Source: an uncultured Gammaproteobacteria bacterium (GTDB lineage: Bacteria; Patescibacteriota; Microgenomatia; Daviesbacterales; UBA10151). Taken from it: a stretch of 64,000 nucleotides of DNA. The stretch is from assembly GCA_964394855.1 (NCBI GenBank), contig CAYMZD010000001.1, positions 120,107 to 184,106 of the forward strand. Reading direction: 5' to 3'. Numbering within the stretch: position 1 is the stretch's first letter; every line of letters begins with the position of its first letter. Below are positions 5,391 to 11,737 of this stretch, piece after piece. The notes below the pieces were generated by a model. That model saw nothing but the letters and a program-made list of their open reading frames with translations, made no database searches and was not told the origin of the DNA. The position numbers and the translations under genes are program-made.

Positions 5391-5953
5391 CCTTTAACCC
5401 TTTCTACATATTGACCAGTTCTGGTATCCACCTTAACTTTTTCTCCCACTTTCATAAAAATTGGTACTTTAATATTGAGGCCATTTTCCAAAGTGGCATC
5501 TTTGTAAACATTAGAAACCGTATTCCCACGTTCTCCCGGTCCTGTTTCAGCAATGGTATAAATTAAGTTGATGGGTAGCTCCACAGATAAGGCCTCCCCT
5601 TCTGCCACAATCAAAGTTACCTCTAAACTATCCTTTAGATACTTGGCTTGATCGCCCATCACTGATATGGACAGCGGGAACTGTTCGAAGCTCACCGGAT
5701 CCATAAAATAAAAACTATCCCCATCACGATATAAATATTGGGCTTTTTTCTTCTCTATATTGGCTTCCTCTACTTTTGAGCCGGTGATAAAAGATTTTTC
5801 CAAAGTGGTACCGGAACGCAAATTTTTGACTTTTACTTTGACATTACCAGAACCCCGACCCATTTTGACATGGTCATAGGATAAAATCTGAAAGATATTG
5901 CTACCCTCTTTAAAAAAAGTACCGTTTCGAAGATCAGTAACATTTAATGCCAT
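5387..5953 (-). CDS. efp: elongation factor P
   Basis: N-terminus 'NDLRNGTFFKEGSNIFQILSYDHVKMGRGSGNVKVKVKNLRSG' is the classic EF-P KOW domain with the modified Lys loop. Confidence 0.9.
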   Translation of the reverse strand: MALNVTDLRNGTFFKEGSNIFQILSYDHVKMGRGSGNVKVKVKNLRSGTTLEKSFITGSKVEEANIEKKKAQYLYRDGDSFYFMDPVSFEQFPLSISVMGDQAKYLKDSLEVTLIVAEGEALSVELPINLIYTIAETGPGERGNTVSNVYKDATLENGLNIKVPIFMKVGEKVKVDTRTGQYVERVKG

Positions 5954-6677: not shown

Positions 6678-6761
6678 GCCGAGGTGGCGGAATGGTAGAC
6701 GCGAAGGTCTCAAAAACCTTTGATCCAAAAGATCGTGTGGGTTCGACTCCCACCCTCGGCA
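6678..6761 (+). tRNA. tRNA-Leu (anticodon CAA), type II with 16-nt variable arm
   Basis: Manual cloverleaf: acceptor GCCGAGG/CCTCGGC, D-stem GCG/CGC, anticodon stem AAGGT/ACCTT with loop CTCAAAA, variable hairpin tgatc-caaaa-gatcg, T-arm GTGGG-TTCGACT-CCCAC, discriminator A. CCA is not encoded. Confidence 0.85.
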
Positions 6762-6765
6762 CATT

Positions 6766-8130: not shown

Positions 8131-8719
8131 GGCTTAAGATTGCTACCATTGGTTCAGTTGGTAGTTTGTCTTTAGTCATAGAAAGTTTTGCTTGAGGAAT
8201 TCCCCCTTCTGCTCCCAGTTCTTTTAAAAACTTAGTCCTATCTTCCCCATTGGGAATGGGAATGATAATTTTTGGTTCAAGCTGGGCTACAGCTTTGACT
8301 GAACCTAAACCTAAAATTAAAATATCAGTTTCATCAATCTCTTCAGACTCCTCGTCTGTTAAATTTTTTTGGCTCAAGCCCAAGTAAACTACTCTTACCC
8401 CATCCATGGTGATATGGTAAATGGTATCTCCATTCCTTTTTATGCCTGTAATGACTACTCCTTTTGATTCATACTCACCAGGACCATTAAAAACTAAACC
8501 AGCACCATCTTTCCCCAAGGTAATATCAGCTTCCACTCCCTTTGTGGGGTTGATCACTAAACTGGCTTCTTTACCCTTGAGTCTAAATGCAGCATTACCT
8601 AACCAATAGATATCCATTTGTCGGCTAATTCTATCAAAAAGTTCTTCGGTTTGACAATATGCTAAAATATGAACAATGCTCAAATTAACCAAAGTTTTAT
8701 CAACCAAAACATTTGTCAT
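8114..8719 (-). CDS. MBL-fold/UPF0173-like metal-dependent hydrolase (tentative)
   Basis: 'DIYWLGNAAFRLKGKE...LVINP' resembles the N-terminus of the UPF0173 beta-lactamase-fold family. Weak. Confidence 0.35.
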   Translation of the reverse strand: MTNVLVDKTLVNLSIVHILAYCQTEELFDRISRQMDIYWLGNAAFRLKGKEASLVINPTKGVEADITLGKDGAGLVFNGPGEYESKGVVITGIKRNGDTIYHITMDGVRVVYLGLSQKNLTDEESEEIDETDILILGLGSVKAVAQLEPKIIIPIPNGEDRTKFLKELGAEGGIPQAKLSMTKDKLPTEPMVAILSHAKSA

Positions 8720-9847: not shown

Positions 9848-10552
9848 TTGTTAAACGAGAAAGAAGAAAAGTTTTATATGTTTGAATTAGAACAAAGAAA
9901 ATTGAGGCTGGGGATGCCAAAAGAAAACCGTTTGACAGTTAATTCCGAAGAGCTTCTTAGGAAAGCTGGCCTCAGGTTTAGAAGTCCCACCACAGATGGA
10001 AGATTACGCGTACCAGTGGCGAATCTCCCAATAGATCTTTACTACTTCAGAAGCCGCGATATGGTCAGGGTCATGGAGAGAGGCGCCATTGATTTAGGCA
10101 TCAATGGCGAGGATACAGTTGCAGAGTTGGGAAAAGGAGTAACAGAGGTACTTCCTTTAAATATTGGTGAGTGTAGACTGATAGTTGCAGTCCCAAGAAA
10201 ATCCGGGTATAAAAGTGTTGAAGATCTAAATGGCAAGGAGATCGCCACTCCTTATCCGCACCTTGCTGAAAGATTTTTCCAAGAGAATGGTGTCGATTGC
10301 GAATTTTACTATCAAAGAGGTTCCCTGGAGATTACCCCTAGATTGAGGTTAGCAGAGGCCATATTTGATATAACTAACACAGGTCGAGCAGTGAACAGAC
10401 ACAGATTAAGGGAACTAGCTGAAGCTAGACCAGTTCAAGCCGCCTTGTTCGCCCGTCCAGGACTAGAAATAGGTTCTGAAAGGATAGCATGGTTTATAGA
10501 TCTGTTAAGAAATACGGTTTTAGGTAGCCAGCCGGAATTGGCTAGTGAGTAA
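9848..10552 (+). CDS. hisG: ATP phosphoribosyltransferase, short (HisZ-dependent) form
   Basis: Collinear with E. coli HisG: 'LRLGMPKENRL', 'PIDLYYFRSRDMVRVMERGAIDLGINGED', 'GKEIATPYPHLAERFF', 'ITNTGRAVNRHRL'. Lacks the C-terminal regulatory domain. Confidence 0.8.
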   Translation: MLNEKEEKFYMFELEQRKLRLGMPKENRLTVNSEELLRKAGLRFRSPTTDGRLRVPVANLPIDLYYFRSRDMVRVMERGAIDLGINGEDTVAELGKGVTEVLPLNIGECRLIVAVPRKSGYKSVEDLNGKEIATPYPHLAERFFQENGVDCEFYYQRGSLEITPRLRLAEAIFDITNTGRAVNRHRLRELAEARPVQAALFARPGLEIGSERIAWFIDLLRNTVLGSQPELASE

Positions 10553-10565
10553 AAGTTTGACAAAA

Positions 10566-10594
10566 TTGACGAACTTAGTTTTTGGTAGTATAAT
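10566..10594 (+). promoter_or_regulatory. sigma70-like promoter (TTGACG, 17-nt spacer, TATAAT)
   Basis: Near-consensus -35 at 10566-10571 and -10 at 10589-10594. Confidence 0.55.
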
Positions 10595-10600
10595 AACGTT

Positions 10601-10771
10601 TACAATTGAATATTTAAAAAGCGTTTGTACTGGAGTCACGATCCAGGAGTTGATCCCCAAAATGGGATACGGAAAGTTCGAAGCCGTATAAAGAAGAACA
10701 GTCAGTGTCGGATTACGGAGCTGGCCTAATTGGTAAATTTAGTCCACAAGACCCGTAAGGGTCTTTTTTTA
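10601..10771 (+). ncRNA. candidate structured leader RNA / small RNA of about 165 nt between hisG and hisZ
   Basis: Begins just after a consensus promoter and ends at an intrinsic terminator. Contains several local hairpins (ctgga-gtcacga-tccag, atccc-caaaat-gggat, acgg-aaagttcgaag-ccgt) and no ORF. Confidence 0.4.
10749..10771 (+). terminator. Rho-independent terminator (agaccc-gtaa-gggtct plus T7)
   Basis: 6-bp GC-rich stem, tetraloop and seven T residues, 34 nt upstream of the hisZ ATG. Confidence 0.6.
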
Positions 10772-10804
10772 TAGATTATTTAAGTTGTGTGTTAGGATAA
10801 AGAT

Positions 10805-11725
10805 ATGCTTAAAGCACCGCCAACACCAAAAGGGTTTAGGGATATCCCACCTCCTCTGGCCAAGAAGAGACGGGAAGTAATCAACAAAATTGCCTCTTGC
10901 CTGGAGGGGGCTGGTTTTGTACCCATTGACACCCCCACGATTGAATTTGCCGAGGTGCTGCTGGGAAAATATGGAGAAGAAGCTGATCGACTAATTTATC
11001 AATTCAAAGATAGAGGTGGAAGAAAATTGGGTCTTCGCTATGACTTAACAGTTCCGCTAGCCCGATATGTGGCTACTTATAATCCCCCTCTCCCTTTCAG
11101 AAGATATCAAATAGGCCAGGTTTTTCGTGGCGAAAATCCCCAAAAAGGCAGATGGAGAGAGTTTACCCAATTTGACATTGACACTGTCGGCTCAAGCGAT
11201 CTGGTAGAGGATGCAAAAATTATCGCCGCAGTCATCAAAGCTGTCAAAGTAGTAGGTTTGGATAAACCAGTCATGATGATAAATGACAGAAAAAATTTCG
11301 AAGGATTAGATAAGGATGTGATCACCACCATTGACAAGCTTGACAAAATTGGTGACAAGGGAGTTACTCAAGAATTAGTAGCTAAAGGAGTGTCCGAAAA
11401 AGAAGCTGTTAACACCCTCAAGGAGATTAAAAATAAAAAGCCCACGCCGGATTTGGAGGAAATTTTTAAATACTTAAAACAGCTGGGCGTTAGGGAAGAT
11501 GAATATCAATTTGTTCCCACTCTGGCACGAGGGCTTGATTATTATACAGGAACAATTTTTGAACTTAAAGTAGGTACATACGGATTGTCTGTTGGTGGTG
11601 GTGGCAGATATGACAACTTAATTGGCATGTTTGTTTACCCCGACAAAGGAGGGGTCAAAAAACAAATTCCAGCTGTTGGATTTGGTTTAGGACTGGACAG
11701 ACTTTTAGAAATTCTCAACTTGTGA
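10805..11725 (+). CDS. hisZ: ATP phosphoribosyltransferase regulatory subunit (HisS paralog lacking the anticodon-binding domain)
   Basis: Class-II aaRS motifs of HisS ('GLRYDLTVPLARY', 'FRRYQIGQVFRGENPQKGRWREFTQFDID', 'GGGGRYDNL...PAVGFGLGLDRL'). The protein ends right after motif 3 at 306 aa, and it sits next to short-form hisG. Confidence 0.7.
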   Translation: MLKAPPTPKGFRDIPPPLAKKRREVINKIASCLEGAGFVPIDTPTIEFAEVLLGKYGEEADRLIYQFKDRGGRKLGLRYDLTVPLARYVATYNPPLPFRRYQIGQVFRGENPQKGRWREFTQFDIDTVGSSDLVEDAKIIAAVIKAVKVVGLDKPVMMINDRKNFEGLDKDVITTIDKLDKIGDKGVTQELVAKGVSEKEAVNTLKEIKNKKPTPDLEEIFKYLKQLGVREDEYQFVPTLARGLDYYTGTIFELKVGTYGLSVGGGGRYDNLIGMFVYPDKGGVKKQIPAVGFGLGLDRLLEILNL

Positions 11726-11737
11726 TACTTTTAAATC

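Follow-up and report, generated by a model that had tools for sequence, protein, structure and literature searches.

A tRNA-His T-box decoding module without its switching half between hisG and hisZ of a Daviesbacterium, and the related leaders of Microgenomates

We describe here a computational analysis of the spacer between hisG and hisZ of a Daviesbacterium. The window, by which we mean the whole stretch of DNA that was analysed, comprises 64,000 nucleotides. The spacer is homologous to a family of complete tRNA-His T-box leaders found in Microgenomates and retains their 5' module intact, it has neither the bulge nor the antiterminator of these leaders, and the hisZ gene located downstream has a separate promoter. 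In our moderately confident opinion, the locus is best explained by an orphaned T-box decoding module, which always terminates transcription and does not regulate hisZ.

In the window the hisG stop codon (10552) is followed by a promoter, an RNA of about 170 nt, a terminator and, after a further 34 nt, the ATG of hisZ (10805). The features of the locus, each with the evidence for it, are listed below.

9914-10552, + strand: hisG, short form (Pfam HisG, E 9e-38; gene calls)
10566-10594, + strand: sigma-70-type promoter TTGACG-17-TATAAT (11/12 consensus positions)
10601-10619, + strand: conserved A/U-rich 5' leader ACAAUUGAAUAUUUAAAAA (conserved alignment columns)
10620-10651, + strand: ultrashort Stem I with the specifier hairpin (covariation in both helices)
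10620-10622 with 10649-10651, + strand: base helix of Stem I (92% paired; 2 pairs changed on both sides)
10630-10634 with 10642-10646, + strand: upper helix of Stem I (99.7% paired; 2 pairs changed on both sides)
10635-10641, + strand: 7-nt terminal loop GUCACGA, with the specifier codon CAC at 10637-10639
10653-10668, + strand: Stem II hairpin AUCCC-CAAAAU-GGGAU (4 of 5 pairs changed on both sides; loop conserved)
10669-10699, + strand: IIA/B region, including Stem IIA formed by ACGG (10669-10672) with CCGU (10684-10687) (covariation)
10676-10679 with 10696-10699, + strand: pseudoknot IIB, GUUC with GAAC (covariation)
10701-10725, + strand: extra hairpin GUCAGUGUCGG-AUUA-CGGAGCUGGC (internal loop conserved; 5 pairs changed on both sides)
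10726-10747, + strand: non-conserved linker, which holds 'taattggtaaa' (gaps and divergence in the alignment)
10748-10770, + strand: intrinsic terminator AAGACCC-GUAA-GGGUCUU (10748-10765) followed by a U run (folding energy; MAFFT alignment)
10790-10798, + strand: extended -10 promoter of hisZ, TGTTAGGAT (same motif at the same place in 11 of the 23 hisZ relatives whose start codon could be aligned)
10805-11725, + strand: hisZ, HisRS-like regulatory subunit of ATP phosphoribosyltransferase (gene call)

The sequence of the locus is the same in three assemblies, i.e. an NCBI MAG of Candidatus Daviesbacteria and two independent Logan assemblies, and for this reason the junction is not an assembly artefact; every other copy of the locus that was retrieved is 100% identical. 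The hisG gene, for which alternative starts exist at 9848 and 9878, lies upstream of the T-box-derived element and is not under its control. Among 5.8 billion proteins the HisG of the window had no relative at E < 1e-40 but itself, and it shares 28-36% identity with the long-form hisG products of the relatives, whereas the neighbouring HisZ has relatives with up to 78% identity. Either the short-form hisG evolves fast or it came from a lineage not yet sampled. Two short ORFs (10545-10691 and 10625-10729) overlap the element. A scan of the 64 kb with the covariance model R1, described below, revealed no second or complete copy of the element. The gene of tRNA-Leu (CAA) at 6678-6762 is the sole tRNA gene in the window, that of tRNA-His being located outside it.

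Relatives of the element were collected in two ways. A set of 80 hisZ loci, fetched from species-representative genomes, was searched by blastn and nhmmer, and a match to positions 10566-10730 was obtained in four of them (L004, L005, L006 and L074). The element is not adjacent to hisZ in any of these loci: it is found upstream of hisG in L005, L006 and L074, while in L004 it is followed by two unknown ORFs and then by NYN and hisZ. In these relatives the shared hairpins are succeeded by AGGAUGGGACCGCGGGAGG, which is a T-box sequence, and by a long terminator. A pattern made from the shared 5' part, which could find only copies with an intact 5' motif, was then used on metagenomes and gave 92 stretches, nearly all of them with UGGGACC located 123-194 nt past the specifier hairpin. 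Altogether, more than 85 distinct homologous sequences from Microgenomates genomes and metagenomes were obtained, and nearly all are complete tRNA-His T-box leaders.

Model R1, a covariance model of the 5' module, was built from 67 complete members with the window left out. It matched the window at 10616-10728 over its full length and with no broken pairs (90.6 bits, E 6e-15), the scores being 65-124 bits for complete members and 91-96 bits for the subtypes nearest to the window. All parts of the 5' module of the Microgenomates His T-box, namely Stem I, Stem II, the IIA/B region and the extra hairpin, are present in the window. The comparison with the Rfam T-box model (RF00230), which an earlier note on this DNA had proposed, gave no T-box match even at E up to 10: the gathering-threshold scan of the window returned only the tRNA at 6678-6761, and with permissive settings the segment 10400-10950 yielded nothing beyond a terminator-like match due to chance. 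On complete members the same model either scores 39.9-48.3 bits or gives no match, its gathering threshold being 93; in L074 (39.9 bits) it aligns Stem IIA, the F-box region and the T-box sequence.

The score of the element promoter is tied for the best within the 6 kb that were scanned. Sites of at least 9/12 are no commoner in this region than in shuffles, thus the match alone is a weak proof; a promoter of 10-12/12 is kept in 79 of the 86 homologous elements, and in most of them 28-38 nt separate its end from the first hairpin. Transcription would start near 10600-10604. The terminator has a predicted energy of -10.5 kcal/mol, and none of 200 shuffles folded as well. In the MAFFT alignment it is placed, together with its U run, on T1 of the complete members, GGACC-GCGGGA-GGUCC-U6. 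Three observations of the earlier note are borne out by these data: the near-consensus promoter at 10566-10594, the hairpin-bearing, ORF-free RNA of about 165 nt (in our estimate about 170 nt, with no conserved ORF and with hairpins of the 5' domain supported by covariation) and the clean intrinsic terminator 34 nt ahead of hisZ.

Conservation and covariation of the spacer, which had been suggested as a check, were both found in the homologs. In the alignments of the 5' domain (67-81 homologs) 91.5% of cells are paired, as against 78% in shuffles and 25-40% with slid partners; 18 pairs across the domain show changes on both sides, and six helices contain compensatory changes. Folded as a single sequence, the whole RNA does not stand out (z = -1.36). 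An RNA read from the minus strand was considered and rejected, as its fold is no better than that of shuffles (z = -0.15) and the model matches the plus strand only.

The first 20 or so nucleotides of the transcript, with the consensus ACAAYUNAAUAUUUAAAA, are conserved in the family and lie outside all supported helices; folding predicts that the A run of this leader pairs with the U run of the terminator. Within Stem I an internal loop separates the base helix from the upper one, and the terminal loop GUCACGA presents the His codon CAC, as had been noticed from the sequence before. This loop is invariant in all homologs that were found without imposing it, and GGAGUCACGAUCC is invariant in the alignment. 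Most members have GA/GA at the base of Stem I, where the window and about a quarter of members carry one extra base; a K-turn at this place in family members is suggested by sequence. Stem IIA of the window is followed by the F-box-like CCGUAUAAA, and the position of pseudoknot IIB is occupied across homologs by more than 10 different complementary tetranucleotide pairs. The extra hairpin is the last part that the window has in common with complete T-boxes. Homology to the family stops after GGCCUAA at 10729, and the linker (10726-10747) is situated where complete members have Stem III and the UGGGACC bulge.

In the complete family the elements are arranged in the order ultrashort Stem I, Stem II, IIA/B pseudoknot, extra hairpin, Stem III, UGGGACC bulge, antiterminator and two terminators. 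In Stem I an internal loop separates a base helix of 3 bp from a helix of 5 bp, which is capped by the 7-nt loop GUCACGA; the loop of Stem II is CAAAAU, and Stem IIA comes with CCGU(A/U)AAA. A long Stem I with a distal tRNA-elbow platform, a trait of class I, is absent, Stem I having only 3 + 5 bp, and there is no room for it because most promoters end 28-38 nt before the specifier hairpin. In the downstream half, Stem III is followed first by helix A1 and then by the UGGGACC bulge and helix A2, the 3' strand of A2 being the 5' arm of a strong terminator, T2. The A2' strand is present in 71 of the 72 complete members and occurs as a variant in the remaining one. In complete relatives A2 folds spontaneously once transcribed, before the 3' arm of the terminator exists. 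All homologs with enough downstream sequence have the bulge UGGGACC (UGGGGCC in L128 and L157), with the exception of the window, L089 and the L090 group.

The two terminators of complete members stand in tandem, e.g. at 652-760 in L004 and at about 1640-1750 in L174. In 72 of 73 complete members the 5' arm of T1 is made of the last five bases of the bulge (GGACC) and the hairpin ends at a U run, its predicted energy being about -9.8 kcal/mol; as T1 is built from the bulge, pairing of the tRNA 3' end could block T1 before the 3' strand of the antiterminator is transcribed. Three features of the family agree on tRNA-His: the specifier CAC, the UGGG bulge facing a C73-CCA end, and the downstream genes, which are hisG, hisZ, hisD or tRNA-His. 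The tRNA-His genes in the loci of the relatives do carry the C73 discriminator, so that their C73-CCA end is matched by UGGG. Judged by its sequences, the family is an unannotated T-box variant in CPR bacteria, missed at the Rfam threshold, and a literature search found no papers linking T-boxes with CPR bacteria. Some further, weaker matches to the model of the decoding module were observed at other places. L118 carries a second, divergent copy (5575-5696, minus strand; 41.9 bits) and L112 a partial inverted copy at a contig end (1-73, plus strand). A WWE3 T-box (L054, 2410-2504; 35 bits) has a different Stem I and the same UGGGACC bulge, and is located upstream of a putative HisZ/HisRS-like ORF of 422 aa.

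In T-boxes of the ultrashort class the specifier sits in the terminal loop. Actinobacterial ileS T-boxes with an ultrashort or intermediate Stem I were described by Sherwood et al. in 2015, as summarised in PMC7583486. The Microgenomates family is a new variant in that an ultrashort Stem I is combined with transcription termination. A long Stem I carrying the tRNA-elbow platform is as a rule required in transcriptional T-boxes, ultrashort and intermediate forms being known in the translational actinobacterial ileS T-boxes (PMC7583486). With the latter (PMC7583486) the family has in common a truncated Stem I, the lack of an elbow platform and tRNA binding via Stem II and IIA/B. They differ in that the ileS T-boxes are translational, acting by Shine-Dalgarno sequestration, and Ile-specific, whereas the family employs intrinsic terminators, is specific for His and belongs to Microgenomates (CPR).

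With transcriptional T-boxes (RF00230; Bacillus tyrS and glyQS; his T-boxes of Firmicutes, PMC9413887) the family shares the cognate specifier codon, Stem II, the IIA/B pseudoknot with the F-box, Stem III, the 7-nt UGGN ACC bulge and the A1/A2 helices competing with the terminator, and it has his genes downstream as in Firmicutes. It is set apart by a Stem I that is a plain hairpin, in which the terminal loop carries the codon and a distal elbow platform is lacking, by the extra hairpin past the pseudoknot, and by T1, formed from the bulge before the main terminator. The specifier, Stem II and the pseudoknot are what the window copy has in common with transcriptional T-boxes; it differs from them by the loss of Stem III, bulge and antiterminator, and therefore it is not a switch.

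No TGGNACC motif occurs downstream of the module in the window, and Stem III, the UGGG bulge, the A2' and A1' strands and the second terminator T2 are all missing there. Constrained folding gave no antiterminator in the window, nor in the truncated copies L089 and L090. The only upstream partner of the 5' arm of the terminator is the specifier hairpin, at a cost of 5.1 kcal/mol and with Stem I unfolded; the mutually exclusive antiterminator that folding was expected to reveal, one sequestering the 5' arm, is thus not there. The earlier note had seen in the layout an attenuation leader controlling hisZ, such as a T-box responding to tRNA-His. The front half is indeed T-box related and His-specific, and the bulge and the antiterminator of such a leader are absent; the control of hisZ by attenuation is unlikely in view of the missing antiterminator, with the cost given above, and the separate promoter of hisZ. 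The segment 'taattggtaaa', which had been compared with the T-box sequence, was also rejected, since relatives have the true T-box sequence, AGGAUGGGACCGCG, which the window lacks, the segment is conserved in no homolog, and its UGGU misfits C73 of tRNA-His.

The motif TGTTAGGAT lies between the terminator and the start codon and ends 6 nt ahead of the hisZ ATG, therefore the hisZ mRNA is probably leaderless, forming its own transcription unit from this site. The motif is conserved in relatives with no T-box adjoining hisZ. An extended -10 motif (TGnTAnnnT) was noticed 5-8 nt before the ATG at 12 of the 58 ORFs in the window, few with a Shine-Dalgarno sequence (examples are found at 8660-8675, 10790-10804 and 11722-11737). 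At the level of sequence, widespread leaderless transcription units are suggested for this Daviesbacterium.

Of the 66 distinct elements for which 500 nt or more of sequence past the T-box was available, 34 are followed by a tRNA-His gene on the same strand. The tRNA-His (anticodon GTG) is the first downstream gene in about half of the complete members, and examples of the T-box followed by it are found in L174 (1450-1824), L136 (51-353), L123 (684-986) and L090 (7133-7446). For the 39 distinct elements followed by tRNA-His, a median of 12 nt separates the last U run from the 5' end of the tRNA, and no promoter-like site of at least 9/12 is present in between. Some of these tRNA-His genes are followed by hisG and others by unrelated genes. 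The simplest reading is that the T-box controls transcription of the gene of its own ligand.

An NYN-domain gene (predicted RNase) is located between hisG and hisZ in L004 (2412-3008), L005 (2404-2931) and L174 (3405-3926); in the relatives it belongs to the unit after the T-box and tRNA-His, and it is absent from the window. A tRNA-His gene on the same strand, less than 3 kb upstream of a HisZ/HisRS-like gene, was also observed in L019, L042, L047, L059, L062, L063, L067, L070, L071 and L073, the gap between the two genes being about 60 nt in L062 and L070. Model R1 gave no match in these ten loci. Linkage of tRNA-His to the HisRS paralog seems to be wider than the T-box family.

The closest relative of the window HisZ (78% identity) is encoded in L174, in a locus that holds a complete T-box and has the order T-box - tRNA-His - LOG-like gene - hisG(long) - NYN - hisZ - EamA - L31 - RF1. 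The order hisZ - EamA - L31 - RF1 is common to L174 and the window. Truncated copies make up three of about 87 distinct sequences, namely those of the window, L089 and the L090 group. All three have their nearest neighbours among complete T-boxes (74-85% identity, compared with 61-70% to the other truncated copies), hence they are independent singletons which form no clade; as far as the sequences can tell, this points to sporadic recent losses. The module of the window is 75% identical to its nearest complete relative and has no uncompensated change at family-invariant positions. L089 and the L090 group show the same layout as the window, with a promoter, an intact module and a strong terminator immediately after it; conservation among the three does not extend to the linker. 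The terminator of L090 is followed after 50 nt by a tRNA-His gene, with no recognisable promoter in between, which suggests that at least this truncated copy has kept a role in cis. Leaders with the bulge and T1 and without the antiterminator were considered as an intermediate class and rejected: there are none among the 72 complete members, all of which have the A2' strand or its variant.

According to the reading that we prefer, positions 10566-10770 would constitute a self-contained transcription unit encoding the tRNA-anticodon-binding module of a tRNA-His T-box. Transcripts from the promoter at 10566 would always terminate near 10770 and give an RNA about 170 nt long, read-through from hisG would stop at the same terminator (10748-10770), and hisZ would be transcribed alone and leaderless from TGTTAGGAT. 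A rearrangement would have removed the block extending from the 3' half of the T-box through tRNA-His and further genes to hisG(long) and NYN; what may be the lost block is still located upstream of hisZ in L174, the closest relative. The RNA of the window could still bind the anticodon of tRNA-His and would be unable to sense charging or to switch. Against a mere relic speak the near-consensus promoter and the module kept intact despite 25% divergence, which fit purifying selection as well as a recent loss, and also the same layout shown independently by L089 and the L090 group.

Alternatively, the transcript of about 170 nt could be a functional stand-alone sRNA, which would bind the anticodon arm of tRNA-His in trans, for example as a buffer, sensor or chaperone. 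We give this a minor, though real, share of probability: the RNA has a strong promoter of its own, which hisZ does not need, and a strong terminator, its module is as well preserved as in working T-boxes, and three independent lineages converge on the layout, each of them keeping exactly the decoding module. However, the truncated copies are singletons among about 87 sequences, without the clades expected of a long-lived functional class, and ascertainment through the search with the 5' motif explains in part why L089 and L090 are intact. The independent sRNA had been named as an alternative from the start, and a small independent transcript does come closer to the layout than an attenuator. 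That a free tRNA-His-binding module acting in trans, or a charge-independent attenuator responding to the tRNA level, has arisen at least three times in Microgenomates, out of a T-box family that usually has the tRNA-His gene as its first target, seems to us rather unlikely. The SAM riboswitches SreA and SreB of Listeria are terminated leaders acting as small RNAs; the RNA of the window resembles them in being riboswitch-derived and in ending at its own terminator as a separate short transcript, but they are still complete, ligand-responsive riboswitches, whereas the window RNA has lost the switching half.

A non-canonical attenuator acting in cis, in which tRNA-His or another signal modulates the terminator at 10748-10770 and read-through feeds hisZ, is in our judgement improbable. 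The element does lie directly upstream of hisZ on the same strand, the genes past the truncated leader in L089 (an ORF of 108 aa and hisZ) and L090 (tRNA-His) have no promoter of their own of at least 9/12, and in complete members T1 overlaps the tRNA-binding bulge, so that competition between tRNA and hairpin exists in the family. Such a mechanism would nevertheless have to work with no UGGN bulge, the UGGU of the linker requiring A73 where the tRNA-His of relatives have C73. In L089 and L090, as in the window, neither arm of the terminator has an alternative pairing (it would cost 5-8 kcal/mol, and there is no conserved helix), the linker differs among the three truncated copies, and hisZ has its own promoter. 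It is very hard to believe that the region is just the 3' UTR and terminator of hisG, or a small-protein gene, with incidental RNA structure. The terminator would stop hisG transcripts too, and two short ORFs overlap the region, but sequence conservation follows RNA pairing, six helices showing compensatory changes, and in relatives the element is located upstream of genes and not after hisG, with a conserved promoter before it. An orphaned decoding module accordingly remains our preferred reading.

If the RNA of the window is functional, it would represent a novel type of small RNA; otherwise the locus would give a dated picture of how a riboswitch decays and how hisG and hisZ are rewired in a reduced genome. 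In the complete relatives, should the T-box indeed control the tRNA-His gene behind it, a riboswitch would control synthesis of its own ligand. The combination of an ultrashort Stem I with transcription termination provides a natural test of tRNA capture by a minimal T-box during transcription. As a whole, the family shows the Candidate Phyla Radiation to possess T-box riboswitches, of a form which standard annotation misses.
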